64,000 nt of DNA, from positions 64,001 to 128,000 of the forward strand of contig JBDHKN010000006.1 of the NCBI GenBank assembly GCA_039586365.1, read 5' to 3'. The position numbers and the translations under genes were made by a program. The stretch comes from Gemmatimonadota bacterium. Its GTDB lineage: Bacteria > Gemmatimonadota > Gemmatimonadetes > Gemmatimonadales > GWC2-71-9. Positions 2,524 to 32,374 of the stretch are shown one piece after another (within the stretch, counting starts at the first letter, position 1; each line of letters begins with the position of its first letter). The notes beneath the pieces are model-generated. The model saw only the letters and a program-made list of their open reading frames with translations, was not told where the DNA came from and searched no databases.

Positions 2524-3186
2524 TCAATAGTCAGTCGTCAATCGGCTGGCTAGTTGGGCCACAGTAGTTCGCTTGAGCACTCTGTCTTCGTACAAATCCA
2601 CCGGACCCTCGTCAGAGAGCAAGTCCTGCCTTCCTGTCAGGATGGCGGCCTGCCCCAGCTCTCCCAGACACCAGACAGCCATGCCGCGAGACTGCGGCTT
2701 GGGGTCCTTCAGGGCTGCGGCAATCGCCGGCATGACTTCCTGAACATGATCGCCTGCTAGAGCGCCAACACGACCTATGGCCCAGAGTGCGCCAGGTCTG
2801 AAGTGCTCGAGATCCTCCTCAGCTAGCTCCAAAATCAGTGTCACTACTATTGGTATGTACTCGCCGAAGAGCGCCGGCATGTGGTGAACAACTTCGGCAA
2901 TTGCCTCCGGTGCGTGCCAGCAGATGCCGCCAGACTCTTCGGTTATCAGCCAGAACAAGCGCCGCAGGTGTTCTCGGACGTAGGCGGGATCGTCGTTCGC
3001 GATGCGGACGGCCGCCAATGCCTGTGCCTCGACGGCACGCCAGCAGATTTGTGGATCCTCGTCATAGGTGAGAGAAATGAGGACTTTGAGGATACGCCTC
3101 CTCGTCGCCGCCATTTCAGCAATCTGTTCAAGTTGCCCTTGATCGAGCAGCTGTCGCAGGGTGTGTTTGAGTGCGATGTGTGCCAT
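2524..3186 (-). CDS. HEAT-repeat protein, DVU0298-like family
   Basis: WRAVEA...RRLFWLITEESGGICWHAPEAIAE...GALWAIGR pattern; start chosen at ATG 3186 because the longer ORF runs into the divergent promoter region. Confidence 0.7.
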   Translation of the reverse strand: MAHIALKHTLRQLLDQGQLEQIAEMAATRRRILKVLISLTYDEDPQICWRAVEAQALAAVRIANDDPAYVREHLRRLFWLITEESGGICWHAPEAIAEVVHHMPALFGEYIPIVVTLILELAEEDLEHFRPGALWAIGRVGALAGDHVQEVMPAIAAALKDPKPQSRGMAVWCLGELGQAAILTGRQDLLSDEGPVDLYEDRVLKRTTVAQLASRLTTDY

Positions 3187-3266
3187 CCGTAGTAATCCTA
3201 GATTGTCGCCGGCCCTACTCCCGGGAGATACCCCACGAAGCATACCGTGTCTATCTGCGACGTCAA

Positions 3267-3334
3267 TTTCAGTATAGTGCAACCTGTGTGACTGTTGTCT
3301 GATTGCTCTTTCATCACGGAGTGCTATACTGAAA
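3267..3334. promoter_or_regulatory. Candidate divergent sigma70 promoters
   Basis: + strand TTGCTC-N16-TATACT with TG extension (3303-3330); - strand TATACT at 3271-3276. Confidence 0.5.
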
Positions 3335-3402
3335 AACCAGTGTGGGTTGGAGAACCGAGGTGCATGGATTGCGGGAGACACGTACTGGAAGGAGGATGTC
3401 GC

Positions 3403-4746
3403 ATGAGCGACCGTGAGGGCATAGCAGCTCTTTGGACCAAGGAAGACTGGTGGGCGGTCTGGCTCGGGTTGGGGATCATCGCCTGTGCGATCGTCTTCTT
3501 TGTGGCAGGAGGCACGCTCAGACCATTGGCCGTCAGCCCTCCGAGGGATTGGACGGTATTTTCAAGGGTAACATCACATTTTGCTGAGAACTGGATCTGG
3601 TACGTTCTGCTCTACCTGGTGTTCGGCGGCGTATTCACGTTGAGTACGTCTGTCATGGGCCACAAGGCGAAGCAATACGTACCCGGCTTCACGCTGATAT
3701 TCCTGGTCTCAGTTTTCATCCTAGTAGTCAGCCAGAGTCAGTTCTTCCACTACTACAGTCTGGAGGCGCCGTTGGTGGCGCTCATCCTGGGCCTTTTCGT
3801 CGGGAACTTCGCCAGGCTGCCCGATTGGCTCGACAGTTCTCTCAGGACCGAGTACTACATCAAGACAGGCATTGTTTTGCTGGGTGCAACCTTGCCGCTG
3901 ACCTTGATCGTCACCGCTGGGCCGATCGCCTTTCTTCAAGCTACTATTGTATCGCTCTGCACATGGCTGGCAATGTTTTTCTTCGCGACCCGCGTGTTCA
4001 AACTCGACAAGCGCTTCGGAGCGGTACTTGGAGCCGGTGGTGCTGTGTGTGGAGTCTCTGCATCCATCGCGGTTGGTGGAGCGGTGAAGGCAGACAAGGA
4101 ACACGTGGCAATCAGCATATCGATTGTATCTCTGTGGGCACTCGTCATGATCTTCTTCCTGCCACTGGCGAGCAAGGCTCTGGGCCTTCATCCGGGCGTG
4201 GCGGGAGCCTGGATAGGAACCAGCGAGTTTGCTGACGCCGCGGGCTACGCGGCCGCGCAGACTATTGCTTCGAACTCCGGCAACGAAGCTGCCATCCAGA
4301 CCTTCACTCTCATGAAAGTGATCGGACGGGATATCTGGATCGGGATCTGGGCGTTCGTGCTGTCGATCGTCTCTGTGGCCCTGTGGGAGCGAGGGTCCAA
4401 CACGGGGGGCTCGACGGTGGGAGTAGGGGTCATATGGTCACGATTCCCGAAGTTCGTTATCGGGTTCTTCCTCGCCTCAGTAATCATGAGCATCCTGGTG
4501 GCGAGTTCCTCGGCCGACTACGCAGCCGACATTACACCGAGGCTCATTACGCCCATCAAGACACTGCGGACTTGGACGTTTGTCTTCACGTTCCTTTGCA
4601 TCGGTCTCACCACACGATTTCGTGATCTGGCCAAGTTTGGAATGCCACCCTTCTGGGCATTTACTGTCGGTGTTCTCGTGAATGTTCCACTGGGCTACTT
4701 CTTGTCCACAGTGGTTTTCGGTGACTACTGGATGGCTGTGCAGTGA
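3403..4746 (+). CDS. Putative sulfate exporter (YeiH/PSE family) membrane transporter
   Basis: EDWWAVWLG, YIKTGIVLLGA, AVCGVSASIA, GAWIGTSE, RFPKFVIGF; many TM segments; GGAGG RBS before ATG 3403. Confidence 0.85.
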   Translation: MSDREGIAALWTKEDWWAVWLGLGIIACAIVFFVAGGTLRPLAVSPPRDWTVFSRVTSHFAENWIWYVLLYLVFGGVFTLSTSVMGHKAKQYVPGFTLIFLVSVFILVVSQSQFFHYYSLEAPLVALILGLFVGNFARLPDWLDSSLRTEYYIKTGIVLLGATLPLTLIVTAGPIAFLQATIVSLCTWLAMFFFATRVFKLDKRFGAVLGAGGAVCGVSASIAVGGAVKADKEHVAISISIVSLWALVMIFFLPLASKALGLHPGVAGAWIGTSEFADAAGYAAAQTIASNSGNEAAIQTFTLMKVIGRDIWIGIWAFVLSIVSVALWERGSNTGGSTVGVGVIWSRFPKFVIGFFLASVIMSILVASSSADYAADITPRLITPIKTLRTWTFVFTFLCIGLTTRFRDLAKFGMPPFWAFTVGVLVNVPLGYFLSTVVFGDYWMAVQ

Positions 4747-4810: not shown

Positions 4811-6430
4811 CTAATGCATCTCCCACTCGATGAACCCAGGTTCCACATCAGTCATGCAGTTCACAATCAACTCAACCAGGCCGTCATAGAGAATGGAGTG
4901 TTTCTCCCATAGGTCGTAGTAGTTGAACAGGTCGCGCAACTGACCTTTACAGTTCGAGCATGGTGCACAAACGTATTTCTGAATTGACGGATCGAGCTCG
5001 TCCTTGAAGGCATTCAGGATCTGCTCCATCTTCTTGCGGCCGCTGACCTGGGCCCGCCAATCAGCGAAGTTGTGGCCCGACATGATCGCAAATCCACTGC
5101 CCCCTCCGCAGCAATAATTGTCCACGCCGTGGGGCGTCATCTCCCTGAACCGCGGAGCGATCTTCCTGATGACACGTCGCTGTGGCTCAACTATACCCAT
5201 CAGCCTGACAACGTTGCACGGATCGTGCAAGGTGACGGGGAAATCGTTGCGCAACGGATCGACCTTGACCCTCCCAGAAGAAACGAGATTCTCCAGTGTC
5301 ACGAAACAGCTTTCCCGTGGGATGTTGAGGTCGCCGGTCAACACGCGGTCAGCGATTACCGTGAGGGCTTTGTGGGCGTGTCCACACTCCCCGAGCACGA
5401 TCTTCTTTACTCCGAGCTTCTTGGCGATCTGAGCATGCTGGATGGCGACACGGGCAAACTGAGCGTCGTCATACCAAACACCATAGTTGACGCTGTCGTA
5501 ACCAGCAAGTTCGCTCGACATGGTCCAGTTCAAGCCAGCTGACTCGAATATTACTGCAAACGCCCCGGGATTCATGGGCCAAGACAGGATTTCGCCGGCG
5601 TTGTGGATCAGCAGTATGTCGGCGCCCTCCTTGTCCCACGGAGTCTCGATCGTCAAGCCCGTTTTCTCAGAGACGTCCTCATCTATGAACTCCATATTGT
5701 CCTTGACCACGATGGCGTTCATACCCGTAGAAGATCCGACCTTGAGTTGCTGGACGGAGCCGGCCTCGTGCAGTTCTTTGGGGGCTATACCCATCTCCAT
5801 GCTGAAGACCTTGCGGATCTCGTGTGCGATCAATGCATTGTCGACGCCGATCGGGCAGGTCTGGGCACAACGCCGGCATAGGTTGCAGCGATAGGCTAGC
5901 TCTGCCAGACGAGCAACCGTGGTCCAGTTCAGCTCTATCTCTCCGTCCTGCCAGGCCTGAAGCATTCCGCCATTTCCCTTGTGCTTGACGTGTTTCTTGT
6001 ACAAGCGGCGAAAAACCTCTGAGCGATAGGCAGGTCGATAGACAGGATTGTTCCCGCTTGCCTCATAGATGTGACATGCATCCGAGCAAGTGTGGCAGGT
6101 GGCACAGTGCTCCATCGACATCAGGAGCGGCTGCAGGAAAGTCCAGTTGTTCTCCTTGGTGAACAGCTTCTGCAGTCCAGAGAGGAACTGCGCAACCAGC
6201 TTGTCCTCCTCTTCTTTGGTCTTGGGCTTCGGGATGCTGACGGCAATCGTGTCGTCCATTGAGGACTCGTATGTCTCCTCAGCCTTTTCGCTCAAGGGCT
6301 TGAAGTCCGGCGTAGCCTCAGGAGTCTGGAATGGTTCTGGGAGAGGCTTGAAATCCTCTTTTCTCAGCTCGGTCAGCTTCGCCGACGGCTTGGATATATC
6401 TTCGATTCTTACCCGCTTCCTCGTTTGCAT
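4811..6430 (-). CDS. DsrK/HdrD-like Fe-S oxidoreductase (two 4Fe-4S motifs + CCG domain), module 1
   Basis: CATCHTCSDAC, CNLCRRCAQTCP, GECGH, HDPC, CCGGGSG, CSNC; start at ATG 6430 after GAGGAG. Confidence 0.88.
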   Translation of the reverse strand: MQTRKRVRIEDISKPSAKLTELRKEDFKPLPEPFQTPEATPDFKPLSEKAEETYESSMDDTIAVSIPKPKTKEEEDKLVAQFLSGLQKLFTKENNWTFLQPLLMSMEHCATCHTCSDACHIYEASGNNPVYRPAYRSEVFRRLYKKHVKHKGNGGMLQAWQDGEIELNWTTVARLAELAYRCNLCRRCAQTCPIGVDNALIAHEIRKVFSMEMGIAPKELHEAGSVQQLKVGSSTGMNAIVVKDNMEFIDEDVSEKTGLTIETPWDKEGADILLIHNAGEILSWPMNPGAFAVIFESAGLNWTMSSELAGYDSVNYGVWYDDAQFARVAIQHAQIAKKLGVKKIVLGECGHAHKALTVIADRVLTGDLNIPRESCFVTLENLVSSGRVKVDPLRNDFPVTLHDPCNVVRLMGIVEPQRRVIRKIAPRFREMTPHGVDNYCCGGGSGFAIMSGHNFADWRAQVSGRKKMEQILNAFKDELDPSIQKYVCAPCSNCKGQLRDLFNYYDLWEKHSILYDGLVELIVNCMTDVEPGFIEWEMH

Positions 6431-6432
6431 GC

Positions 6433-7368
6433 CTAGTTCTCCTCGACACCGGAGGTTGCCACGTCGACCCAATTCTTCTTTCCGTCCCCTCGAATGTGGG
6501 GCGCTGACCAACTCACCGGATACTGCAAGGCCTCGGACACCTTACGTTCGATCTTTCCGCCTTTGAAGCTCGGCTCGTCACTCCACCTGATATCATGCCA
6601 CATGAAGTACTTGGTAAAGAAATGCGACATATGAGTGAGAGGGATGTAAGCCACCAGGAGACAGCCCAGCACAATCTCGAGTGCAACCAAGACTGACGGG
6701 GCGTCGAGGCTCGAAAGGTTGAACGTCACGAGCTGGGTGAAGAACGCCCTGAGACCAGAGAAAGTCGGATCTACGGTAGCGTGCGCTAACAAGGCCACGG
6801 CCAACGTCACGATGAAGAAGGCAAGATTGAAGAAATCGGAGTGCTTGGTGTACTCGCGGTAGTCCGCATTGAAGGTTCGTCGCACGAGAAGTGCAACGGA
6901 ACCCACCAGACCAAGGCCCAATCCCACATACCCAACCAAGTAGGTCAGGTGGTAGACGGTCCGTCCCAGCACTCCTCCATCGGCTGAGATGTCCATGCCA
7001 GCGGCACCGGCAATCCCTCCCAAAACCAACAAGCCAACCAGACCACCGAGCAGGTACAAACCGAAATGGAACGGAAACGAGCGGAGCCATTGTTGCAGGT
7101 TGTGTTCGCGAACGCCGGCAAGCAATAGAATTTCGGGAACCATGAACTTCAGTTCGCCAAGCATGGATGACTCACGTGGCTTGGTCCACCAATCAGATTC
7201 CTCGAGGTACGAACCACCGTAGCTTGCCCGACCCTTCTCGTGAGCGACAGGGTAGAGCTCCCAACGCAAGTGAATGGGCAACCGGACAATCTTCACGCCG
7301 CGCCAGACGACTGCCGCGACAAACACGGCAACTGCAGCGTACGGCAGAATGAGCAGCATTAAACCCAC
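6433..7368 (-). CDS. DsrM/NarI-like membrane b-type cytochrome, module 1
   Basis: LRWELYPVAHE...YGGSYLEE..WW, FPFHFG, YIPLTHMSH; multiple TM helices; adjacent to DsrK-like gene. Confidence 0.85.
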   Translation of the reverse strand: MGLMLLILPYAAVAVFVAAVVWRGVKIVRLPIHLRWELYPVAHEKGRASYGGSYLEESDWWTKPRESSMLGELKFMVPEILLLAGVREHNLQQWLRSFPFHFGLYLLGGLVGLLVLGGIAGAAGMDISADGGVLGRTVYHLTYLVGYVGLGLGLVGSVALLVRRTFNADYREYTKHSDFFNLAFFIVTLAVALLAHATVDPTFSGLRAFFTQLVTFNLSSLDAPSVLVALEIVLGCLLVAYIPLTHMSHFFTKYFMWHDIRWSDEPSFKGGKIERKVSEALQYPVSWSAPHIRGDGKKNWVDVATSGVEEN

Positions 7369-7370: not shown

Positions 7371-7913
7371 TCAGTCCTCCGTTCGGGACCGCCTCTTGCG
7401 GTCCATGAGTTCTCTGATAGCACCGCTAGTATCAGCGGAATCGGTCTGGTCGTGCACGAGACTCTTGATCTCTTCGGTGCACAATGAGCCGAACCGGTAA
7501 ACCACGCACCTGCGGCACTCGTTCCCCTGAGGAGCGCAGTTGAGTCCCTTGATCATCCAGCATGGTCGGGTGGTCTCCTTGTACGCGGGACAGCTCTCGC
7601 GAGTCTCAGCCTTGCAGGGCAGCAAGTCCCAACACGGGAGCAGCGCTTGCATCCTGCGGATCGCTTCGACATTGAGACCGGAGTTCTGGATCAGGTGGTG
7701 GACGTTATTCACTCGGCTGATGTCTTCGTGCGAGAAGAGACGATGCTTGGAGGCGGTCCGGTGGGCGATTATGAGACCTTCATTCTCGTACTTTCGGACA
7801 GCAGAGACGGAGAGGCCCACCTTCTGCGCCAAGACCCCGATTGAGATTACGGGGTCCTCGATCTGTGGTGGATCTATTTCGCTAGGCGTTTGCCCGTCGT
7901 AGTCGTATCCCAT
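7371..7913 (-). CDS. MerR-family regulator with Cys-rich C-terminal domain containing two CW motifs
   Basis: ISIGVLAQKVGLSVSAVRKYENEGLI...HRLFS HTH; PCWDLLPC...CPAY...PCW...C...CRRC. Confidence 0.85.
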   Translation of the reverse strand: MGYDYDGQTPSEIDPPQIEDPVISIGVLAQKVGLSVSAVRKYENEGLIIAHRTASKHRLFSHEDISRVNNVHHLIQNSGLNVEAIRRMQALLPCWDLLPCKAETRESCPAYKETTRPCWMIKGLNCAPQGNECRRCVVYRFGSLCTEEIKSLVHDQTDSADTSGAIRELMDRKRRSRTED

Positions 7914-8217
7914 CAGGCAGACCGCTCCATAGAAGGAAATCTATTATCTACAGTGCAGGAAATCTGTACGGTAGAATTAAGTTTTCTTTAGGCCGCGTAC
8001 TGACTGGTGGGTGTAGGGGCAGCGGGACTCGTTGATCGAACGATCGTTCGCCATCAACGGTCGGCTCAATCGTCTCGGCGAAGTGACTCGTTACGACTCG
8101 TGACGGCGCAGTCTCTCGTCCATATAGCGCTGCACGGGACTGTAGTCGAGATATCCTGTGGTCAAGATCATAAAAGAAATTGTTGACGTGCTAGCCTGCT
8201 GCACCTCAAAAGACCAA

Positions 8218-8247
8218 TCGGTCTTCGCCTGGCGTGGCGAAGACCGA
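8218..8247 (-). terminator. Probable terminator of the 13.3-8.3 kb operon
   Basis: 12-bp inverted repeat TCGGTCTTCGCC/GGCGAAGACCGA followed on the - strand by TTGGTCTTTT. Confidence 0.6.
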
Positions 8248-8288
8248 CTCACTCACTCTGTTGAGCAGCAGAGGACCCCCGAGCTGGC

Positions 8289-8681
8289 CTAGGCGAGCAA
8301 CTCAGTGACCATGTCGACCAATTTCTGATGGTCCACGGGCTTGCTGATGTAGCCCTCAGGCGGAGGTACCTGACGTCGGGAAGAGATGAACTTCTCGAAC
8401 TCGTCCGAGATGCCGGTGATGATAATGACGGGGATGCTCTTCAGATGATCGTCCTGTTTCAGCCTGCGGTAGACTGCAACCCCCGACTTCTCAGGCATGG
8501 TGATATCCAATGCGACCAAGTCCGGTGCTGCCTGTTCGATCATAGCAATCGCTTCAGCCCCATCGTTGGCCGTGGCAGTGACAAACCCGTGGTCTTGCAG
8601 GACGGTGGTTAGGAATTCGCGTGCATCGGGATCATCATCTACTACCAAGACGGTCTTCGCGTCGTCAGGCATGTGGCCCAT
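8289..8681 (-). CDS. Stand-alone response regulator receiver
   Basis: VLVVDDD, PDLVALDITMP, IITG, SKP; no output domain. Confidence 0.92.
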   Translation of the reverse strand: MGHMPDDAKTVLVVDDDPDAREFLTTVLQDHGFVTATANDGAEAIAMIEQAAPDLVALDITMPEKSGVAVYRRLKQDDHLKSIPVIIITGISDEFEKFISSRRQVPPPEGYISKPVDHQKLVDMVTELLA

Positions 8682-10119
8682 CCTTTTCGGTCAGATCAGA
8701 ACTGTCCGGCTCATGCTGCGTCGGTCGCACCCTAGGTAGTTTTACGACAAACTTCGTCCCGACGCCAGGTTGGGACTCCAATTCGATGGTTCCTCCATGG
8801 GCCTGCGCGATGCGGTCGGAGATGAACAACCCCAGCCCGGTGCCCGTTCCCTTCGAGGAGAAGAACAGAGTGAAAGCCCGCTCCTGCGTCTCTTGATCCA
8901 TCCCGATCCCATTGTCCTCGATCTCGTACCTGATGTGGTCCGCTAATCCTTGTAGCCTCACCACTACCTGAGGGGTCGCCTGCTTATCGTCCAACCTGCA
9001 TGCATCCAGCGAGTTCTCGATCAGATTCACCAGCAGGGAACGAACGGCTTGGGCGTCCGCCTCGAACTCGCCGGCTGATTGATCGACCGACGTGATCAGC
9101 TGTACCTGGAGATCCTTGGCTCGAGATTCCATCAGACCGCAGACCTCTTCTGCAACCAGCGGAGCTGAAAGTGGTTCCCAATTGGGCACTCTATCCTTCG
9201 CGTAGTAAAGGATGTCTGACACCATGCTGCGGATCCTGGCCACGTTCCGATTGACCGTCGCCCAACCCTTCTTCACTCGTTCTTCGTTGCCCTTCGTAAA
9301 ACCGGAGTCGACCAAATACATGCCACCGGCCAATCCGTTGAGGAGACCCTTGAGACCGTGAGATACTGAGCCGATCAACAACCCAAGCTGAGTCAAGCGG
9401 TCCTCCAACTCCCGAACATCGGTTATGTCGGCGCTCATCTCCATCACACCTGTCGTGCCACCCTCTCCGTCGGGAATCGGTGCAGTCGTAACGAGCACGT
9501 TCCTGTGCTTACCGTCCAGCGACGTGACCACCTCCTCCCTGGTGTGGGGTTGGCCGTCATCGAGAGTTTCCTGGACGGGGCACAGTGCACACGGTTCGCT
9601 GCGATGCTTGTACGCCTGGTAACATTTGCGGCCAAGACCGTTGCCGAAGTTCTCCTGGAAGGCGCGATTGGCATCGACGATGTTCAGGTCAGGATCCTGA
9701 ATCGTGATGTAGCAGGGCACTTCGTCAAACAGCGTGTGATAACGGCGTTGGCTCCGGCGCAGCAACTTCTCCATGTTCGTGTGGTGGGTGATGTCGGTAG
9801 ACATCTCCATCACCGTGGTGATCTTGCCCGCCTCGTCGCGAATGGGGGTGGTTTGTACCATGACCGAGAGTTCGTCTCCATCCAGCGTGCGGATCTGCTC
9901 TTCGCTCTCGTGCCGCTCACCGTCACGAAAGGTCCGCGCCACAGGACACACCTCACACCTCTCGGAGCGCTTCTTGTAAACCTGATAGCAATAGCGTCCT
10001 TCGAAGTCGCCGAAGTCCTTCCGGAACCGCTGGTTAGCGTCGACGATCCGGAATTCTCGATCCTGAACCGTGAGGTAACACGGCATAGCCTCGAAGTAAT
10101 GTCGATACTGAGAGTCCAT
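8665..10119 (-). CDS. Soluble PAS-PAS sensor histidine kinase
   Basis: Two similar PAS repeats each with C-x10-C-x2-C; H-box SHGLK; NLIENSLDA, DNGIG, FFSSK, GTGLGL. Confidence 0.92.
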   Translation of the reverse strand: MDSQYRHYFEAMPCYLTVQDREFRIVDANQRFRKDFGDFEGRYCYQVYKKRSERCEVCPVARTFRDGERHESEEQIRTLDGDELSVMVQTTPIRDEAGKITTVMEMSTDITHHTNMEKLLRRSQRRYHTLFDEVPCYITIQDPDLNIVDANRAFQENFGNGLGRKCYQAYKHRSEPCALCPVQETLDDGQPHTREEVVTSLDGKHRNVLVTTAPIPDGEGGTTGVMEMSADITDVRELEDRLTQLGLLIGSVSHGLKGLLNGLAGGMYLVDSGFTKGNEERVKKGWATVNRNVARIRSMVSDILYYAKDRVPNWEPLSAPLVAEEVCGLMESRAKDLQVQLITSVDQSAGEFEADAQAVRSLLVNLIENSLDACRLDDKQATPQVVVRLQGLADHIRYEIEDNGIGMDQETQERAFTLFFSSKGTGTGLGLFISDRIAQAHGGTIELESQPGVGTKFVVKLPRVRPTQHEPDSSDLTEKDGPHA

Positions 10120-10227
10120 GGCTCACTCCCGGACACTCAGACGGTGCGAGCTCTGTGTGTCAACAGTGAGATGTCGATCCAGCCCAGCCTGCGGGCGGGC
10201 GGAACATTATTCCTACAAGCCCACTGG

Positions 10228-11994
10228 CTACACCTTCTTGCTTTCGTGGGCCAACTCGAGAACCTTCCGCACGTTGAGTAAGAGCCTCTCTTCGTCCACG
10301 GGCTTGTCCAAGTAGCCCTCGGGTCGCCTGACCGAGCGGTCGTATATGAGCCTACGTAGTTCGGGCCTGCCTGTAATGATGCAGATCTTGAGATCCTCGA
10401 GTTCGGGATCCTTCCGTAGGATCTCGAAGACCTCACCCACGTCCCGACCAGGCATATGCAGGTCGAGCGTCAATAGATCTGGTTTCTCCCGCCGCGACAG
10501 TTCCAGGGCCTCGTCGCCGCTCATGGCCCTGAACACGGTTGCGCCGTTGTCCTCTAGCACGGTGGCGAGAAACTCCACCTGATCGGGCTCGTCATCGGCA
10601 ACCACCAAGGTCCGACCCGCCAGCGGAAGTCCCTCGACTACGGCCGGCTCTGCAGCGATCGGCTCTGCAACAGGCACGGCTACCTTCTCCTCGATCACCA
10701 GCGCGTTGGCCACCAGGTTGACCAGCTGTGTCACCTCCATGCCGAGTTCGTAGTGGCGTATCACGTCGGTGAGCCCGTCCACGCAATTGTGGCAAGACGT
10801 TACGACCGCTTGAGCACCGGTGTCCTTGAGTTGGTTTGCCTTGACAATGGCTGACTTGAGCCGTTGCGGCGTGTACTCAGACATGGACATAGCACCGCCG
10901 CCACCGGTACAGCAGTAGTTCTCGGTCCGGTTCGGGTACATCTCGCGAAAGTCCTCACATACTAGCTGTAGCAGCTCACGCGGTTCCTCGAACAGGCCGC
11001 AGCTCCGAGCGTTGTTGCAGGAGTCATGAAAAGTGACCGGCTTGGTGTTGCGGCTCTTGTCCACCTTGATCCGACCCTCCTTGATGTAGCGGAGCATAGT
11101 GAGGACAGAACTCTCCATCTCGAACGGCACATCGAACTTGGCCCAATTGGGGCCCTCGCAGCGAGTGGATCGGTAGCCGTGGCCACATTCAGAGATGACG
11201 AGCCTTTTGCCGCGAAATTCCTCGACCTTCTCATACAGGCGCTGGGCAACCGACCCGCCCAAGGCGTCGTCGCCCGAAAAAAGGCCGAAGTTGGTCATGT
11301 CCCAGCCTTCACTCGGCATGGTCCAATTCTCACCCGCTGCATGGAAAATCTTGGCCGCGTCCGCGATGCTGCGCGGGTCGTATTTCACCTCGCGTGGATT
11401 GATGGAATAGACAACCTCGCAGTCCATCTGATCGATCGGTATGGCAACCGAAGGATCATCCAGTTCGTCCTGCAGCTCTTCCTCCATCCACTCGAGCGTC
11501 TCGAGATAATCTTCCTTGAGAACGCCCATCTGATTCCCGATCTCCCATTGGTCCTTGCTGACCACTGCCACACCCTCTGGCATGATCCCGACTGAGACTA
11601 GGAGGCCTCTTGCCATCCGGTTGAACGTGGCGAAATCGACACCCATGGGGCAGTTGATCGAGCAACGCCGGCAGTTGGTGCACTTGCCGAACACGATGTC
11701 CTTGAGTTCTTCCAGCTCTTCATCCGTGTAGACGCTCCCGGCCTTCACCCACCAGGGGACGACCCGGCCGGTCCAGTCGAAGTGCTTCTTGAACAGCTTA
11801 CGAATCCTGTCCGCCTTGTAGGGTGGTGCGTAGGTCGGGTCGCCGGGATTCGCCAACACGTAGTGGCAACAGTCGATGCACATTCCGCAGTGCACGCAGG
11901 CTATCATCGATCCGGCTATCTGACGGTTGAGCTTTTGGCCCATCCGCTCTATGACCTTCTCGGCCTTATGAGATCTCGTTCTTGTCTGGCTCAT
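10228..11994 (-). CDS. HmcF/TmcB/DsrK-like Fe-S oxidoreductase fused to a C-terminal receiver domain, module 2
   Basis: CVHCGMCIDCC, CTNCRRCSINCP, ECGH, HDSC, CCTGGGG, CHNC; Ala/Pro/Glu linker; then VVADDE...LTLDLHMP...ITG...DKP. Confidence 0.9.
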   Translation of the reverse strand: MSQTRTRSHKAEKVIERMGQKLNRQIAGSMIACVHCGMCIDCCHYVLANPGDPTYAPPYKADRIRKLFKKHFDWTGRVVPWWVKAGSVYTDEELEELKDIVFGKCTNCRRCSINCPMGVDFATFNRMARGLLVSVGIMPEGVAVVSKDQWEIGNQMGVLKEDYLETLEWMEEELQDELDDPSVAIPIDQMDCEVVYSINPREVKYDPRSIADAAKIFHAAGENWTMPSEGWDMTNFGLFSGDDALGGSVAQRLYEKVEEFRGKRLVISECGHGYRSTRCEGPNWAKFDVPFEMESSVLTMLRYIKEGRIKVDKSRNTKPVTFHDSCNNARSCGLFEEPRELLQLVCEDFREMYPNRTENYCCTGGGGAMSMSEYTPQRLKSAIVKANQLKDTGAQAVVTSCHNCVDGLTDVIRHYELGMEVTQLVNLVANALVIEEKVAVPVAEPIAAEPAVVEGLPLAGRTLVVADDEPDQVEFLATVLEDNGATVFRAMSGDEALELSRREKPDLLTLDLHMPGRDVGEVFEILRKDPELEDLKICIITGRPELRRLIYDRSVRRPEGYLDKPVDEERLLLNVRKVLELAHESKKV

Positions 11995-12030
11995 GGAATC
12001 TGTCTTTCACTCGCTTGGTAGTCCCTTCGG

Positions 12031-12702
12031 CTATCCGTGCTGGAGCGGATAGACACCCCGGTAGCCCATGCTCTTACCGAAGTAGTAGCGTGTGAAGGGG
12101 TAGTAGAGATAGTGAGAGATCTTGCTGAACGGAACGTACACCAGGAAAAACGCCGTCAGTATGAAGTAAGTTACCAGATGCCACTCCCCGTTTGCGGTGG
12201 AGTTGGGCACGGCCAGGACTGCGAAGAAGAACCACACCGTCAGCAATGTCAGCGAGAAGTAGTCGTCCGGGGAGCTGATGGCCCTCATGTAAGGGTTGGT
12301 CACCCTCCGGATCATCCGCACAACCCCGACCAGACAAGCGGCTCCTATCACCAATTGCAGCAGTACTGTAACCGTGGAGCTCTGCAGCAGACCCGCGCTG
12401 TACGGAATGATGAACGACAACGCGATCGCAGCCGTGACCCCGAGATGGAAGATTGCGAACTGTACATACATGAGCGGCTTGGACCTGGTGCTCTCCATCG
12501 CCCAAGGCATAGCAATGTTGGCCCATGAGTAGAGGATTCCCTTTGCCTTAGTGGTGTTCAGTCTTCCGGTTGGCGCTTGGCGCTCTGTTCCTGCCTTGAA
12601 ACGTCGCAGGAACCAGGTGATGCGCATGACATAGACCAGAGCCATGAACCCCAGGGCAACTTCCTGGAGAGTGTGCTCCGCAAAGTGTAACAGGTCGCTC
12701 AT
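12031..12702 (-). CDS. NarI/HmcE-like membrane anchor, module 2
   Basis: About 5 TM helices; FHLG, RRVTNPYMRAISSPDDY, YVPFSKISH. Confidence 0.82.
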   Translation of the reverse strand: MSDLLHFAEHTLQEVALGFMALVYVMRITWFLRRFKAGTERQAPTGRLNTTKAKGILYSWANIAMPWAMESTRSKPLMYVQFAIFHLGVTAAIALSFIIPYSAGLLQSSTVTVLLQLVIGAACLVGVVRMIRRVTNPYMRAISSPDDYFSLTLLTVWFFFAVLAVPNSTANGEWHLVTYFILTAFFLVYVPFSKISHYLYYPFTRYYFGKSMGYRGVYPLQHG

Positions 12703-12717
12703 CGCGTGCTCTCTCGG

Positions 12718-13260
12718 TTAATCCAAGGCCGCCAGTGCAGCCTTGAAGGAGTTGTATTGCGGCGTGTCCAAAACACAGATGACAATTTCTTTGATGCTGC
12801 ATTCGCCGGCCAGGCGGTTCTTGAACACGTCCATCATCACTCGGGCGCTGACTTCAGGCAAAATCCCGTAGTAGCCCGCTCCCATAGCCGGGAAGGCGAT
12901 CTGCTCGATGCCCTTTTCTTCGGCCCGTTTCAGGCAGTTGAGGACGGTGGTGTATAGTTTCGTCTCCGTGTCTTGTTCTTGGAACCGCGGTCCCACGGCG
13001 TGAATGATGTGCTGAGCCTTGAGATTTCCAGCGGCCGAGACCACGGCCTCACCGGTCGCTACCGGTGCCAGCTGCTCGAGTTCCTTTTGAATAGTGGGTC
13101 CACCCCTCACTGCGATAGCCCCGCCAAAACCCGAACCCAAGGTCAAATCAGGCTGGGCGTAGAAGACAAAGGCTTCGATGTCCAGGTCGGTGATGTCGTA
13201 CTTGATGAGGCGGATGGTGGTGCGGTTGATTCGGATGCCGTCTGACACTGCCTGGGTCAT
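12718..13260 (-). CDS. Macrodomain (ADP-ribose-binding fold) protein with degenerate catalytic motif
   Basis: DIT, GFGGAI..RGG, AGNLKA.HIIHAVGP, IAFPAMGAGYYG; ATG 13260 preceded by AGGAGAGG. Confidence 0.88.
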   Translation of the reverse strand: MTQAVSDGIRINRTTIRLIKYDITDLDIEAFVFYAQPDLTLGSGFGGAIAVRGGPTIQKELEQLAPVATGEAVVSAAGNLKAQHIIHAVGPRFQEQDTETKLYTTVLNCLKRAEEKGIEQIAFPAMGAGYYGILPEVSARVMMDVFKNRLAGECSIKEIVICVLDTPQYNSFKAALAALD

Positions 13261-13498: not shown

Positions 13499-13514
13499 TG
13501 GCACATTGGTTGCC
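13499..13514 (+). promoter_or_regulatory. Sigma54 (-24/-12)-like motif
   Basis: TGGCACATTGGTTGCC matches TGGCAC-N5-TTGC; lies in a ~600-bp divergent intergenic region. Confidence 0.4.
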
Positions 13515-24874: not shown

Positions 24875-25285
24875 TCAGACTAGAAGTTCCCTGACTTTCT
24901 CCAGGAACGCGTCTTTGTCGATCGGCTTGGGGAAGAAGCCGTTAGGCGCTGGTACCGAGCGACGACCGCTGATGAATTTCTCGTATCCGTACGGATCACC
25001 AGCGTATCCCTTTACAGCCGTGACGATGACCACCGGTATGGAGGCCAGCTCCGGATCAGTTCTAATCTCCTTGTAGAATCTCGCGCCGGTTGTCTCGGGC
25101 ATCAGAATGTCGAGCGTCACCAGGTCCGGTCTCTCTTGTCGCGCCATCGCGATGCCCTCTTTCCCATCACTTGCAGTGACGGTCGTGTAGCCCGCGTCGC
25201 TCAGCAGCATCTCGAGGTAACTAGCTACGTTTGGCTCGTCTTCTACAATGAGGATCTTCTTGGTGTTGTTTGCAGTTGTACTCAT
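24875..25285 (-). CDS. Stand-alone response regulator receiver
   Basis: ILIVEDE, PDLVTLDILMP, IVTA, PKP; GGAGG before ATG 25285. Confidence 0.92.
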   Translation of the reverse strand: MSTTANNTKKILIVEDEPNVASYLEMLLSDAGYTTVTASDGKEGIAMARQERPDLVTLDILMPETTGARFYKEIRTDPELASIPVVIVTAVKGYAGDPYGYEKFISGRRSVPAPNGFFPKPIDKDAFLEKVRELLV

Positions 25286-25336
25286 AGCGGGCCTCCTTCG
25301 GCCCAGAGTCAATCCAGGTTCGGTATCAAGGGACGC

Positions 25337-25882
25337 CTACCCGGATTCATCGGTTCCCGGTGGCGGTTTCTTCTTCAACATCGCGAGGGCACGACGTAGT
25401 GCGTGCGGATCCGCACCCTGAATCTCCTGTTCCAGTTCCTCTTTGAGGCTAATCCTGTCCGTAGTGTGCACCGTCTCTTCCACCCCCAAGGCCTCCTGGA
25501 CGATTCGTACGTAATCCAGCGGCCTCACCGGTTTTTCTAGGTAGACGCCGGTGCCGGACAATACCTTGCCTTCCATGATGTCTTCCATATCGTGCTGGCC
25601 AAGCTCATCCTGCGCATGTGCAGTAACGATCAGCACTGGAATCCGCGACAGGTCCTTGTCCTTGCGTAGCTCGTACAGCAGCCGGCGTCCACTCTTCCGT
25701 GGCATGACAAGGTCAAGCGAGATGAAGTCGGGCCGCCGCTCCTGAATCAGCTTGAGGGCTTGGTCGCCATCGGAAGCCCTGAGGACGTTGAAACCAGCGT
25801 CTTCGAGAATCTGAGCCAGGTAGGTCTGTACGTTCGGTTCGTCGTCGACTACTAGAACGATCTTGTCCTGGGCTCGTGCCAT
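25337..25882 (-). CDS. Receiver domain protein with short helical C-terminal extension
   Basis: VLVVDDE, PDFISLDLVMP, IVTA, EKP; no recognisable HTH. Confidence 0.9.
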   Translation of the reverse strand: MARAQDKIVLVVDDEPNVQTYLAQILEDAGFNVLRASDGDQALKLIQERRPDFISLDLVMPRKSGRRLLYELRKDKDLSRIPVLIVTAHAQDELGQHDMEDIMEGKVLSGTGVYLEKPVRPLDYVRIVQEALGVEETVHTTDRISLKEELEQEIQGADPHALRRALAMLKKKPPPGTDESG

Positions 25883-25912
25883 GGTATTGCCTCTTCGTAC
25901 ATTTGTCGTCCA

Positions 25913-27022
25913 TCAGTCATGGCGTTCGCCATGCGCGAGTTCCCCTGGTTTGGGCAGCTTGTCGCGCGGCAGCTCGATGCGAAACACGGAGCCCTCACCT
26001 TCCTCAGATCTGAATGAGACCGTGCCGCCGTGCTGGTGCACGGCCTTTCTGGTTGTGAGTAGCCCTAGCCCGACACCCTTGTCGGAGCCCTTGGTAGTAA
26101 CGAACCTCGTGAACACCTTTCTTCTGATTTCGTATTCCATCCCCCGACCATTGTCAGCGACTTCATACACCAGCATGCCGTTGCTTTCTCGTGTCGACAG
26201 TGTCACGACGAACTTCCGGTTCTTGTCAGTCACACCACAGGCATCCAAGGCGTTTGACACCAGGTTGGCTAGGCACGTGTGGATGCCTTCTTCATCCAGA
26301 GGCGCCGGAGGGATACCGTCTTGCAGATCTATCCGCAGTTCGATTCCCAGTTGGGTCGCTCGTTCCCGAAACAGCTCCACGACCTTGCGTGCGGGGTTGT
26401 TAGGGTCGACCAGCGTCACTTGTGCCACACCACCCTTGGCAAAGTCCAGAAATTCCTTTACGAACTCCGAGATCCGAGCGATGTTTTCCTCCAGCATGGT
26501 CCACCCCCGGGCAACACGTTCATCATCTTCCCGCTCTATCCCGGTGTTGACCGCGTAGATGCCCCCTTCCAAGCCCATGAGTACGTTCTTGATGCCATGG
26601 GCGATCCCTGCCACGGTCTCTCCCACGGTAGCCAGCCGCTCAGCTTCGCGTTTCTCGTTTTCCAGTTGTTTCACCAAGGTGATGTCCGTGGACATCTCAA
26701 TGACATAGGGGATTTCACCATCGACGCGAGTGATGGGAATCATCTGCACCAAGTAGTGGCTCTTCCCACCTCTGCTATAGGTCCCCTCCTCCTCGCGGGT
26801 GCGGATCCTTCCGTCAGTGAAGGCCTCCGACGCGGCGCACCGCAAGCAACGATCTGACCGACCTTTGTAGATCTCGAAACACTGACGGCCCTCCCAGGGT
26901 CCGTACTCCTCGCTGAAGCGCCGGTTCGCTCGGACGATATTGAAGTCCTTGTCGATGACACAGATGCCCACTGGTACCTCGTTGAACAGGTTTGCCTTGA
27001 GCCAAGCATCGATCGTCTTCAT
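25913..27022 (-). CDS. Soluble PAS sensor histidine kinase
   Basis: PAS with CFEIYKGRSDRCLRC; H-box AHGIKN; NLVSNALDA, DNGRG, GVGLGL. Confidence 0.92.
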   Translation of the reverse strand: MKTIDAWLKANLFNEVPVGICVIDKDFNIVRANRRFSEEYGPWEGRQCFEIYKGRSDRCLRCAASEAFTDGRIRTREEEGTYSRGGKSHYLVQMIPITRVDGEIPYVIEMSTDITLVKQLENEKREAERLATVGETVAGIAHGIKNVLMGLEGGIYAVNTGIEREDDERVARGWTMLEENIARISEFVKEFLDFAKGGVAQVTLVDPNNPARKVVELFRERATQLGIELRIDLQDGIPPAPLDEEGIHTCLANLVSNALDACGVTDKNRKFVVTLSTRESNGMLVYEVADNGRGMEYEIRRKVFTRFVTTKGSDKGVGLGLLTTRKAVHQHGGTVSFRSEEGEGSVFRIELPRDKLPKPGELAHGERHD

Positions 27023-29004
27023 GACGGATCACGGACCATCGACTGAATGGCTGAAGGCGTATCGCTGTACGCGCGGGACACCTCGGTGCCAGGGGCCATG
27101 CGGCGCAATTCCAGACTGCGGTCCACGTCGTGGCATGTATCGCAACGGTCCAGCGTGGGCGGATGACTTCCTGGATCTTCCGCTAATCGTCGTTCGTGGC
27201 AACTTTCGCACAGACCATGCATCGCGTGCATATAGCCGACGGCTGCCTGCCAGCGGTCCTGTGGTGGCTCGACGAAGGAAGCCACTGCCACCAATTCCTC
27301 GTGGCACTCGGCACAGGGAGCAGCTGTCTCGTAGCTCTTCGCGGCCTCAGGATCCTGATGGCACTCAAGGCATGCAGCGTTGCCTCCTAGCTTCTGTACG
27401 TGAGACATGTGGTTGAAGACCGATGTCGGCTCGTACATGTCACGGTGGCACTCATAGCACGCCGTGTTTCGGTCGTACGGCTTGTTGATGTGGTGACACA
27501 CTGTGCATGAACCTTCGTCTTCCAGGCGCGCTTTGTGTGCTTCGTGATCCAAGAGTACGGGATAGCCGTTTCTATTGCCGTCAATCATCAGGAGCGGCAT
27601 GGTCGCTCCGTCGCTCGGCCCCGTGCCAACATGATCTGGGAGTTCGAGTCTCCTGCCGGGACCACTCTGTCGGGGGACTGCAATACCGTCCACCGTGCGC
27701 GCCGGCGAGACGGGTGTTCTTGCGGGTACCAGGCCCAGTATCGCCTTGTCGGGAAGGAGCAGTACGGCAACCGCCGCCGCGGCAATGGTGATCAAGGAGA
27801 ATCTGCGGGGGGCAACTAGTTTGTGAGGCAGCAGGCCGTGCAGGGTGGCCGGATCAAATGAAGGTCTCGTCACGCGACCGGCATCCGGTTCTGCTTCGTA
27901 GACGTTGAAGCGTTCCACGAAGAAGAGGAAGATCAGGACAGCGCCCGATACGATGCCCAAGCTCACTGCGAACTCCATCCAACTCGGGAAGTACGCCAGA
28001 TCCTCCGGCCGGGCGAACGCCACGATGCAGACGTCGAGCCTGTAGAGTACCATGCCGAGGATTGTCAGTGCCGAACACAGTCCCAGGCCCGCAATGCTGG
28101 ATCGCACTGGCTTCAGCAGTAGGAGGCCAGCCGGGATGACAGCGCTAATCCCGAGTTCGGCAACGAACAGCAGGCTTTGCCAGGAACCGTCCAGGAAAGG
28201 GATCAATACACCGCGGAGGGCCAGATCACCAATGCGTAGTAGGACATACAATCCCAGAACCACCGCAGCTACCTTCCCCAGGCCGGACAATAGCTTTGCG
28301 TGGGTCCTGTGACCGAGGAAGAACGCGGCCAACAGCGACTCCATCACGACCATCATGAGTCCGAGTGCCACAGCCGACACGAAGAAGAGCACATACATGA
28401 TGGGGCTGTACCATAGCGGGTGAAGCCGATACGGTGTGATGAGAAACAGTGATCCGAGTGACGACTGGTGCAGTGTGGAGAGGATGATTCCCGCGATGAC
28501 CAGCGGGATGGTGATCCTCTTCAGAGCCTTGAGCGGCTTGTGCAGCGCCGAGCCTGTGAAGCGTGGGTGTTCCAGTACGACGGGTGCGAATTCCAGGGTG
28601 AGCACCGCCAGGTACAGCATCACGCAGGCCGCCACTTCGAACAGCACGGAGTGGTACTGCCAGTAGATTGCAGGATGCCAGATGTGCCAGGGCACGCCGA
28701 GGTCGTAGAACAGCCCCACCGCCACGGCGATGTATCCGAGGAAAGCAGTGAGGATCGCGGGTCGCACGAAAGGCCTGTACTTCTCGATGCCGAAGATGTA
28801 TACGGTCGCTGCCAGCACGAACCCACCTGCCGCCAGCGCCACTCCGCCCATGACGTCGAATCCTATCCAAAGCCCCCACGGCGCGGCGTCGGACAAGTTG
28901 GTGACAGCGCCGAGGCCATGGATGAAGCGCACCGCAGTGATGGCGGTGAGCACACCAACCAAAGCCCATAGAACTGACTTGAGAGCGTAGAGTCGCTTAT
29001 TCAT
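27019..29004 (-). CDS. NrfD/HybB/HmcC-type membrane protein fused to a six-heme cytochrome c3-like domain
   Basis: TNLSD..PWGLWIGFD, DLG.PW, LSTLHQSSLGSL, HPLW; then CTVCH, CYECH, CLECH, CAECH, CESCH, CDTCH; start taken at ATG 29004. Confidence 0.92.
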   Translation of the reverse strand: MNKRLYALKSVLWALVGVLTAITAVRFIHGLGAVTNLSDAAPWGLWIGFDVMGGVALAAGGFVLAATVYIFGIEKYRPFVRPAILTAFLGYIAVAVGLFYDLGVPWHIWHPAIYWQYHSVLFEVAACVMLYLAVLTLEFAPVVLEHPRFTGSALHKPLKALKRITIPLVIAGIILSTLHQSSLGSLFLITPYRLHPLWYSPIMYVLFFVSAVALGLMMVVMESLLAAFFLGHRTHAKLLSGLGKVAAVVLGLYVLLRIGDLALRGVLIPFLDGSWQSLLFVAELGISAVIPAGLLLLKPVRSSIAGLGLCSALTILGMVLYRLDVCIVAFARPEDLAYFPSWMEFAVSLGIVSGAVLIFLFFVERFNVYEAEPDAGRVTRPSFDPATLHGLLPHKLVAPRRFSLITIAAAAVAVLLLPDKAILGLVPARTPVSPARTVDGIAVPRQSGPGRRLELPDHVGTGPSDGATMPLLMIDGNRNGYPVLLDHEAHKARLEDEGSCTVCHHINKPYDRNTACYECHRDMYEPTSVFNHMSHVQKLGGNAACLECHQDPEAAKSYETAAPCAECHEELVAVASFVEPPQDRWQAAVGYMHAMHGLCESCHERRLAEDPGSHPPTLDRCDTCHDVDRSLELRRMAPGTEVSRAYSDTPSAIQSMVRDPS

Positions 29005-29824
29005 CGCGTCCCTCGCCGTCACCTGCGTCGTCAGTCTTCGCACCGTGGTCTGCGGCGGACGAAACCCCCAAGGCCGTCTGCGAAGCTAGCTTGATCCGCC
29101 GACCGATGATCCAGTAGATCCCGGTCATTAGACCGCCGACCCCAAGCATCAGTGGGGGCACCTTGTGGAGGGCGGCCCAAGTGCGTTCGGGAAGGGGTTG
29201 CGGTCCCAGGTCGGGATGCCAGGCGAGAAAATCGAGCGGAATATCCGAGATGTAGAGCACGGATGTGCCACCGACCTCGTGTTCTCCAAATACCCGTGGG
29301 TAGTATTGCCCGGGATTTGCATCCAGACGGCGATGTGCCTCTTCTAGCAGCTCCGAACGTGACCCAAAAACGGTTGCTTCTTCAGGACATGCCTCCACAC
29401 ACGCTGGAATTCCTCCCTCTCTAATCCTGTGAATGCAGAAAGTGCACTTGCGTACATAGGAAACCCGCTCGTGCCATTCGTACCGCGGGATGCTGTAGGG
29501 ACAGGCAGCCAGACAATAGCGACAGCCCATGCATTTGTCGGGATCGTAGGTAACCGGACCCTCAGGAATCTTCTGCATGGCGCCAACCAGGCACGCGCTC
29601 ACGCAGGCCGGTTCCAGACAGTGGCGGCACTGCTGACGGACGTAGTGCTCGTTCGGGCGCCTGATGATCGTGCAGAAGCGCGTGGACGATAGGTCACTGA
29701 CCGCTGCTTGTCCCCGCCAGGGATGATCACGACCGAGTTCGTTTTCCTCCTTGCAGGCAGCAACACACTTCTCGCAACCAGTACAACGTGTTGTGTCGGT
29801 GAGGATAGCAACGGGTTGCGTCAT
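28997..29824 (-). CDS. HybA/HmcB-like 4x[4Fe-4S] electron-transfer subunit with C-terminal TM anchor
   Basis: CTGCEKCVAAC, CRHCLEPACVSAC, CMGCRYCLAACP, KCTFC...PACVEACP, EVGGTSVLY. Confidence 0.9.
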   Translation of the reverse strand: MTQPVAILTDTTRCTGCEKCVAACKEENELGRDHPWRGQAAVSDLSSTRFCTIIRRPNEHYVRQQCRHCLEPACVSACLVGAMQKIPEGPVTYDPDKCMGCRYCLAACPYSIPRYEWHERVSYVRKCTFCIHRIREGGIPACVEACPEEATVFGSRSELLEEAHRRLDANPGQYYPRVFGEHEVGGTSVLYISDIPLDFLAWHPDLGPQPLPERTWAALHKVPPLMLGVGGLMTGIYWIIGRRIKLASQTALGVSSAADHGAKTDDAGDGEGRDE

Positions 29825-30522
29825 ATTGGTTGCTCCTCTTTTCCGAGCATCGTACCGACCCTGCGGCCGGCATCTGGCGGGAAGTGCCAGGCCAGCTCGG
29901 ATACGAATTGAGTTTCTGGGAGCAGAATCATGTGGCTCAGCTTGGTGAGCGGAATCAAAATCAATAGCACATCGGCGCTCATTGCGTGGATGAAAACCGT
30001 CACATCGTATGGAATGGGATTCAACTGTGGATGGAGGATTAGGAATCCAGATATGAACGGCAGCGCGATCACCACTGGCAATGCGTAGTCCTGGAAGCGG
30101 CTCAGGCTCCTGGAATCACGGGCTGTGGCCCGCTGTATCACGAGGATTGCTGCTGTAACGATAGCCATTATGGTCAGAACGTCTGCGAAGCCGTTGGAAA
30201 TGGCCGGCCAGGACAGGCCCGTGCCCGATTCCCATAGCGCGATGTGGCCTGCCAGGAAGACCGGGACTACGATGATCGAGATATGAAAGACAAGGGTGGT
30301 CAGACTGTAATGGAAGCGCTGTCTGATCTGGCCTAAAGGAAGCAACCACTTGATGGTTGCAATGAGGGCCATCCGATACGGAATAGTCTTGTCACCGGCC
30401 CGGCTCACAATCCTCTTCATCTCCCAGACGGTCATCATTGCATGTCGCAACAGACCCAGCACCATGAACACGAAGGCTGCGCGGAAGAGCGGCCCACGAG
30501 CAAACTCAATCCAGGCTTCCAA
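29821..30522 (-). CDS. HmcE/TmcC-like NarI-family diheme b membrane anchor, module 3
   Basis: FARGPL, FHISIIVVPVFLAGH, IHAMSADVLLILIPLTKLSH (four His). Confidence 0.87.
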   Translation of the reverse strand: MEAWIEFARGPLFRAAFVFMVLGLLRHAMMTVWEMKRIVSRAGDKTIPYRMALIATIKWLLPLGQIRQRFHYSLTTLVFHISIIVVPVFLAGHIALWESGTGLSWPAISNGFADVLTIMAIVTAAILVIQRATARDSRSLSRFQDYALPVVIALPFISGFLILHPQLNPIPYDVTVFIHAMSADVLLILIPLTKLSHMILLPETQFVSELAWHFPPDAGRRVGTMLGKEEQPI

Positions 30523-30534
30523 TCTCTGCTCTCC

Positions 30535-31971: not shown

Positions 31972-32009
31972 TATCTTCTTCTTCCTCTGTGTTTTCCCAT
32001 CGATCGCAA

Positions 32010-32348: not shown

Positions 32349-32374
32349 CTTGGCATCTCTCCGCAGCCTGCAGG

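Follow-up and report, generated by a model that had tools for sequence, protein, structure and literature searches.

A conserved five-gene set with a receiver-bearing iron-sulfur subunit, associated with dissimilatory sulfur metabolism, in Gemmatimonadota and other phyla

A set of five genes was analysed in a stretch of 64,000 nucleotides from a Gemmatimonadota bacterium (GCA_039586365.1, contig JBDHKN010000006.1, positions 64,001 to 128,000; hereafter the window), where it runs from 13260 to 8289. It encodes a macrodomain protein, a membrane anchor, an iron-sulfur (Fe-S) protein with a C-terminal receiver domain, a histidine kinase, and a free receiver, and is a real, conserved variant of the TmcBC/HmcEF/DsrMK kind that is apparently undescribed. 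We read it, tentatively and at slightly less than an even chance, as a kinase-tuned, cytoplasm-facing one-heme quinol:DsrC oxidoreductase. The Fe-S core is 77–88% identical across three phyla, mostly in uncultured dsrAB-bearing bacteria, and the set is therefore probably a genuine accessory of sulfate respiration that has been overlooked. Its features, in window coordinates, are as follows.

12718..13260, minus strand: macrodomain protein, 180 aa from the ATG at 13260 (PF01661, E 1.4e-27)
12031..12702, minus strand: NarI/TmcC/HmcE-like membrane anchor, 223 aa (Pfam and NCBIfam)
10228..11994, minus strand: TmcB/HmcF/DsrK-like Fe-S/CCG protein with C-terminal receiver, 588 aa (Fer4_8, CCG, Response_reg)
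8665..10119, minus strand: soluble two-PAS histidine kinase, 484 aa (HATPase_c, H254 phospho-site)
8289..8681, minus strand: single-domain receiver resembling the DVU0259 family (NCBIfam, 102.5 bits)
8216..8249, minus strand: terminator-like hairpin, 14 bp, with a T-rich tail (sequence inspection and folding)

The five open reading frames were confirmed head to tail on the minus strand, with intergenic gaps of 15, 36, 108, and −17 bp, and the hairpin at 8249–8216 closes them, as a preliminary description of the window had stated. The 101-nt stretch holding the hairpin has a folding z of −3.43, and none of 200 shuffled sequences was equally stable; by eye, a comparable hairpin with a T-tail was not evident in most of 15 relatives. 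None of the five proteins reached an equivalog cut-off in Pfam or NCBIfam.

Loci were gathered in three ways, with a kinase query, with an Fe-S query in phylum samples, and with a macrodomain query in metagenomes (the best 80 of 537 confirmed stretches). A total of 147 loci were examined, including 88 with a qualifying Fe-S gene, 60 of which have sufficient flank to be scored. The five-gene order is complete in 44 of these 60 loci; counted against the 55 whose core identity is at least 74%, the number is again 44. These fractions are to be read with the fact that two of the three routes pre-select a member of the set (kinase or macrodomain) and that related loci are not independent. The full order was found at 51 loci in total, 21 of them from the Fe-S query alone, and is present in Gemmatimonadota, Zixibacteria, and Desulfobacterota; some homologues of the Fe-S::receiver protein are labelled Planctomycetota, and the nearest relatives of the locus are Gemmatimonadota metagenome-assembled genomes. 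The recurrence that the preliminary description had asked about is thus seen across phyla, and a gene order unique to the window genome is rejected. Mean identity to the window proteins across 36 loci is 81% for the Fe-S core, the most conserved part of the set, 67% for the anchor, 67% for the fused receiver, 61% for the kinase, and 55% for the macrodomain, while the free receiver, with 50% (38 loci), is less conserved than the fused one. An assembly artefact as the source of the Fe-S::receiver fusion was rejected because a contig from another run spans the junction and because both CCG and Response_reg are present in all 120 listed homologue clusters of this protein.

The Fe-S subunit carries two [4Fe-4S] motifs, the cysteine of an ECGH motif (C270), and one five-Cys CCG motif (C326, C361, C362, C401, and C404), and these 14 cysteines are invariant in 59 of 59 sequences. 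One CCG motif together with an ECGH cysteine is the pattern of DsrK, HmcF, and TmcB, and DsrMKJOP is reported to be a menadiol:DsrC-trisulfide oxidoreductase in which DsrK reduces the DsrC-trisulfide (PMC10861901; this and the other articles cited by PMC identifier are represented here by passages of their text). The motifs agree with the earlier claim that the enzyme performs thiol chemistry. In NCBIfam, the subunit scores 333 bits for HmcF against a cut-off of 750, 317 for TmcB against 735, and 253 for DsrK against 400. In a quick maximum-likelihood tree of 85 Fe-S cores (SH-aLRT support, midpoint root, long branches flagged), the family forms its own clade (support 98–99), which joins TmcB and HmcF (99) and stands away from DsrK and DsrK-like paralogues; the DsrK of the same genome and the subunit of its second DsrMK-like pair fall on other branches. 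Orthology with TmcBC, HmcEF, or DsrMK was rejected on account of the scores below cut-off and the separate clade.

Only two histidines of the anchor, H86 and H197, are placed as heme ligands, and both are kept in 55 of 55 family anchors and align with H56 and H205 of NarI, the proximal heme pair. The distal (inner) pair is found in none of the 55, versus 10 of 10 TmcC and 6 of 6 HmcE proteins above cut-off, and the NCBIfam scores of the anchor are low (HmcE, 56 bits against 275; TmcC, 51 against 240). Its AlphaFold2 (AF2) model has a predicted local distance difference test (pLDDT) score of 84.9, and the fold matches NarI (Z 12.0, root-mean-square deviation 5.8, 181 residues aligned) and EtfD (Z 11.2, 3.9, 206 residues) are tied as best, with Z values that are modest for helical bundles. 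A Foldseek search with the model gave no match at E ≤ 0.001, with NarI and EtfD ranked top. Within the set and next to it in the window, neither a periplasmic multiheme cytochrome nor other Tmc or Hmc subunits were found. The anchor is predicted from its sequence to carry a single heme b, and since the distal heme ligands are lost and a periplasmic partner is lacking, it is predicted to act on the cytoplasmic side only and not to conduct electrons across the membrane. EtfD binds menaquinone next to its single b heme (PMC13083937), so a one-heme anchor may still have a quinone site.

The distribution of the set ties it to dissimilatory sulfur metabolism. The same contig carries a complete cluster that ends about 14 kb before the five-gene set, in which dsrA and dsrC were identified by hidden Markov models and the other genes are, as we take them from their translations, aprBA, qmo, sat, dsrMKJOP, and dsrB. 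In a sample of 401 Gemmatimonadota genomes, all six with a close orthologue have a dsrA-family match (in one of them only a weaker, dsrB-like match), which is present in nine genomes overall. All 20 carriers in a sample of 121 Zixibacteria genomes are among its 43 dsrA-positive genomes, and 32 carriers were found in 351 Desulfobacterota genomes, with a dsrA match in 28 of the 31 tested. No close orthologue was found in the 78 Zixibacteria-sample and 392 Gemmatimonadota-sample genomes without a dsrA match. The thiol partner is therefore likely DsrC, and the motifs together with this co-occurrence make DsrC the probable substrate. In a related lineage (L063), a two-Cys dsrC gene lies directly before a two-His anchor gene and an Fe-S gene.

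The phosphotransfer set is complete in its residues, as the preliminary description held: the kinase phospho-site H254 and the cysteines of its PAS domains are invariant in 51 of 51 sequences, D511 and K564 of the fused receiver in 56 of 56, and D59 and K114 of the free receiver in 38 of 38. The fused receiver is intact (D467, D468, D511, T541, and K564) and has the further invariant residues R547, Y551, P558, and G560. The best receiver-family match of both receivers is NF045717 (DVU0259), at 67.1 bits for the fused and 102.5 bits for the free one, below the cut-off of 160. The phosphorelay that had been proposed is dropped, as Pfam finds neither a histidine phosphotransfer (Hpt) domain among the five proteins nor a receiver in the kinase that would make it a hybrid; the set is not a multistep relay but an orthodox kinase with two receivers. 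Each PAS domain of the kinase has a C-x10-C-x2-C pattern (C44/C55/C58 and C166/C177/C180), C136 being additional, and these cysteines align with three cysteines of an activator in the window that has the spacing of OrpR. The PAS domain of OrpR binds a redox-sensitive [4Fe-4S] cluster through three cysteines (PMC8359166), and by analogy the PAS pair is predicted to be an Fe-S redox sensor. By sequence, the pair has no match in the PDB and no solved relative.

Where the downstream flank reaches at least 1100 bp (80 loci), the attached receiver and the kinase are both present in 73 (two of these with a split receiver) and both missing in six, while the receiver occurs alone in one and the kinase alone in none. 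The genome with the receiver only has a 47% identical kinase elsewhere, and two of the six loci with neither are more distant ones, in which a separate receiver gene and a gene for a one-PAS kinase lie further along. The tethered receiver and the Cys-PAS kinase are an add-on that was gained and lost together. The free receiver follows the kinase in 53 of 64 loci, is missing in 11, and is dispensable. Given the joint occurrence of kinase and fused receiver and the less regular presence of the free one, the likely partner of the kinase is the fused receiver, and phosphotransfer between these two is very probable. A mirror-tree comparison of the dimerization and histidine phosphotransfer region of the kinase with the receivers gave partial r values of 0.45 (fused) and 0.37 (free) in 35 loci.

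The core is kept at 81–88% identity in four loci without the receiver and the kinase. One of them is in a dsrA-positive genome (G070) that is 97% complete, where macrodomain, anchor, and Fe-S genes are in order at 86% identity without a receiver, no kinase match was found in the genome, and only two changes, both conservative, occur at conserved columns. Since the core persists without the add-on, a kinase that tunes the enzyme is favoured over an enzyme that serves as sensor, which argues against the earlier suggestion that the enzyme reports the state of the quinone pool into the relay. In a fuller version of that alternative, the module would read the redox state of quinone or DsrC, the tethered receiver would hold the kinase close enough for its PAS clusters to equilibrate with the module, and the output would pass through the free receiver. 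Loss of the distal heme would suit a non-conducting probe, a flexible tether would suit recruitment, and all phospho-sites are intact; however, the persistence of the core in these four loci and the 11 loci in which the kinase is not followed by a free receiver speak against such a complex, and we regard it as unlikely.

The macrodomain belongs to the core of the set because it is kept when the receiver and the kinase are lost, and it represents a distinct subfamily. Its gene lies before the anchor gene in 43 of 43 close-clade genome loci and in none of six outside the clade; in metagenomes, 64 of the 65 loci that extend at least 250 bp downstream have the anchor gene after it. Columns were counted over 41 orthologues and aligned to MacroD2 and TTHA0132. 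The adenine-binding Asp (D22, 38 of 41) and the second glycine loop are kept, while the NAAN segment has become FYA(R/Q/T) and GGGVD has become GSG(F/Y)G, with Gly at the Asp position in 41 of 41; aromatic residues at 33, 34, and 45 are near the distal-ribose pocket in the alignment to MacroD2. An active hydrolase of the MacroD type was rejected because the catalytic segments NAAN and GGGVD...H are replaced, and all macrodomain equivalog scores are below cut-off. The protein is likely a non-hydrolytic binder of an adenine nucleotide, and its role as such a subunit of the complex is proposed with some hesitation, at somewhat less than an even chance; ADP-ribose, ADP, or adenosine 5'-phosphosulfate (APS) as its ligand are guesses.

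The preferred reading builds on the genes, motifs, synteny, co-occurrence, and joint gain and loss observed here. In it, the macrodomain protein, the anchor, and the Fe-S subunit would form a quinol:DsrC oxidoreductase running beside DsrMKJOP. Electrons would pass, in either direction, along a path from menaquinol over the proximal heme b, the two [4Fe-4S] clusters, and the non-cubane cluster with C270 to the tri- or disulfide of DsrC, and without a distal heme and a periplasmic subunit the module would be a low-yield or balancing route. The kinase would use Fe-S clusters in its PAS domains to sense redox, phosphorylate the tethered receiver, and thereby tune the enzyme, while the free receiver could optionally serve as a sink or a second output. 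That the phosphorylated receiver directly controls the enzyme has about an even chance of being right. The whole picture, of a respiratory-type oxidoreductase under direct two-component control in which the macrodomain reads an adenine nucleotide, possibly APS or ADP, and which gates a non-electrogenic DsrC-recycling bypass in uncultured sulfate reducers, is possible but well short of even odds.

Several observations weigh against the reading as a kinase-tuned quinol:DsrC oxidoreductase, and the first of them concern its substrate. The set is missing from 23 of the 43 dsrA-positive Zixibacteria-sample genomes, so it is an accessory of Dsr metabolism and not a core part, and a 40–42% identical relative is present in four Gemmatimonadota-sample genomes without a dsrA match. 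EtfD is the only PDB sequence match of the Fe-S core, and H272 aligns with the EtfD histidine that caps its non-cubane cluster, although DsrK shares the motif and is catalytic. This histidine is reported to make the cluster of EtfD non-catalytic (PMC13083937). The module may have a different substrate or be a pure electron wire, serving a tandem DsrC-like protein, another persulfide carrier, or a soluble donor in the manner of EtfD, outside sulfite reduction proper, to which H272 and the related genes in genomes without dsrA would also be suited. In 3 of 43 genome loci, and in several loci from metagenomes, the macrodomain gene is immediately preceded by a tandem DsrC-like gene; each domain of its product has only one of the two cysteines of DsrC. 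The tandem gene is absent from most loci, however, and the lack of close orthologues in all 78 and 392 genomes without a dsrA match of the two samples also stands against this different role, which we consider quite improbable.

Related blocks around DsrC-like genes were seen elsewhere. At L063–L065 (G394, G090, and G349), a related anchor/Fe-S pair occurs without a dsrA match and adjoins a cysteine-desulfurase-like gene (named by eye), and a dsrC-like gene was seen at L063 and L065. At G000 C49:1480-6713 and at L057, an Fe-S/anchor pair is found with an HTH::DsrC-like fusion (HTH, helix-turn-helix), another HTH protein, and a tandem DsrC-like protein whose domains each have one Cys; in G327, this block is joined to the five-gene set.

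The other points against the preferred reading concern sensing and coupling. The x10/x2 spacing of the PAS cysteines differs from the x8/x3 of OrpR, and these cysteines may use Zn or form a disulfide. The distance from the last cysteine motif of the CCG domain to the receiver varies from 50 to 108 residues in 47 sequences, and the linker (about 438–454) is rich in Pro, Ala, Val, and Glu and disordered (AF2 linker pLDDT <50), so there is no hint of a fixed allosteric contact. The single-chain AF2 model of the fusion (predicted template modelling score 0.71) has no fixed arrangement of receiver and core, which, in a model of this kind, should not be taken as evidence against docking. Stand-alone receivers 60–63% identical to the fused one are encoded elsewhere in the genome (G000 C118:30040-30483 and C51:36060-36473), so the domain would be able to work unfused; that on C118 is beside a hydrogenase/hyp-like cluster and that on C51 follows an apparent respiratory cluster (neighbours named by eye). 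Frequent DNA-binding neighbours also make a transcriptional output available: in 25 of 43 genome loci the gene just upstream of the set encodes an HTH_17 regulator (co-directional in 16), and an HTH or MerR gene is somewhere at 33 of 58. The earlier statement that the set has no DNA-binding output is thus correct for the five genes themselves but not for the locus as a whole, which has a MerR-type gene downstream.

These neighbours bear on a further explanation, in which the receiver would be a neighbouring gene of the operon that became fused and now acts passively as a phosphate sink or localisation tag, and the real output would be transcriptional through HTH_17 or MerR regulators, in the way that Rrf1 is reported to affect the regulation of the hmc operon (PMC13344952). 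An unfused receiver gene directly follows the Fe-S gene in an outer group (L154 and L155), and in 2 of 10 tmc loci one comes after tmcB; both fit this explanation, and by these arrangements the fusion arose from an old gene neighbourhood. On the other hand, three phyla retain the fusion, which has a conserved surface motif of its own, a Pfam scan of two HTH proteins shows no receiver domain in them, and an HTH gene is not adjacent in the window genome or in most Desulfobacterota loci. The probability of a passive fusion is accordingly judged to be low, and a receiver that tunes the enzyme is preferred.

Two further features of the window accompany the set as context.

7371..7913, minus strand: MerR-type HTH regulator with a Cys-rich C-terminus; 3' of the set in several relatives
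4811..7368, minus strand: second DsrM-like and DsrK-like pair

The MerR-type gene starts 375 bp downstream of the set on the same strand, and 19 of the 58 genome loci include the second DsrM/DsrK-like pair. In related loci, the middle part of the HTH_17 regulators is rich in Cys, which, with the Cys-rich MerR-type regulator, suggests further Fe-S or metal sensors in the island. A DVU0298-family HEAT protein (2524-3381, minus strand, above cut-off) and a YeiH-type transporter (3295-4746, plus strand) are found together with the island in several of its relatives. At 13499-13514 (plus strand), a full sigma-54 consensus site faces a GH18-like gene, away from the operon, and an antisense sigma-54-like site occurs 249–365 bp upstream of the macrodomain gene in nine relatives. 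Of 42 upstream regions, one has a sense site matching at least 9 of 10 positions within 400 bp of the macrodomain gene and 10 have an antisense site, so that a sigma-54 promoter of the five-gene operon is unsupported.

A second, Hmc-like operon is located at 24875-33891 (minus strand) of the window. It encodes NifB/NifX-like, HmcF-like, four-His HmcE-like, and HmcB-like proteins and a fusion of HmcC with a class III cytochrome c, together with a sigma-54 activator with an OrpR-spaced Cys PAS, two DVU0259-like receivers, and a one-PAS Cys kinase that is 37% identical to the kinase of the five-gene set. Here the signalling equipment of the five-gene set recurs next to a different redox complex. 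A lead from the ESM Atlas, a 51-protein cluster with a receiver and a 2Fe-2S thioredoxin-like (NuoE-type) domain (score 0.84), is possibly another receiver fused to a redox subunit.

Receivers fused to effectors mostly control DNA binding or second-messenger enzymes, and single-domain receivers are already known beside Hmc and Tmc genes (Rrf1 and the DVU0259 family, NF045717). A receiver on a respiratory Fe-S subunit would, if true, place electron flow under direct phospho-control, and the fusion would then point to a role of the Rrf1/DVU0259-type receivers beside Hmc and Tmc. The one-heme anchor predicts a DsrC-reducing route with an energy yield unlike that of DsrMKJOP.

Neither the fusion nor the operon is described in the titles and abstracts found, although subscription papers and supplements outside this scope may list the genes, and passages of PMC10861901, PMC8359166, PMC13083937, PMC4215793, PMC10553843, PMC10504309, PMC10591310, and PMC13344952 do not describe the set. 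This is in line with the earlier view that the arrangement is not a described system. Its closest likeness is to TmcBC and HmcEF of Desulfovibrio, which form the sister lineage, give the best NCBIfam matches, and share one CCG motif with the ECGH cysteine; receivers or related PAS kinases are near 4 of 10 fetched tmc loci, as in the five-gene set. TmcABCD and HmcABCDEF, however, have a four-His anchor, a periplasmic cytochrome, and NrfCD subunits, whereas the anchor of the five-gene set has two His, the cytochrome and NrfCD subunits are absent, the receiver is fused, and a macrodomain is added. Tmc operons without tmcA exist (PMC10553843), and the cytoplasmic partner of Hmc and Tmc is described as not established, with DsrC suggested (PMC4215793). 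Six carrier genomes also hold a true tmcC elsewhere, and in three tmc loci (L180, L182, and L183) tmcC is flanked on both sides by a tmcB-like gene.

DsrMK(JOP) resembles the set in its cytochrome b-like anchor, two cubanes and one non-cubane cluster, ECGH cysteine, and link to dsrAB, but DsrM is diheme, the anchor of the set has only two His, and the genome has its own dsrMKJOP. The mycobacterial EtfD (PDB 9ojn) likewise combines a single b heme and menaquinone with two cubanes and CCG domains; it differs in being one polypeptide fed by electron-transfer flavoprotein, with non-catalytic clusters and no signalling parts, and its first CCG domain has a linear [3Fe-4S] cluster for which the Fe-S subunit lacks the needed cysteines (PMC13083937). 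OrpR of D. vulgaris shares three conserved cysteines at the corresponding place of the PAS domain, but it is a sigma-54 activator with one PAS domain and C-x8-C-x3-C spacing, in contrast to a kinase with two PAS domains and C-x10-C-x2-C spacing (PMC8359166).

MacroD2, YmdB, and AF1521 share the fold family of the macrodomain, the Asp of the GDIT motif, and the G-x-G-x-Y-G loop. Asn, Asp, and His are the hydrolase-site residues of MacroD-type ADP-ribose hydrolases; in the macrodomain of the five-gene set, these three are replaced and aromatic residues are added.

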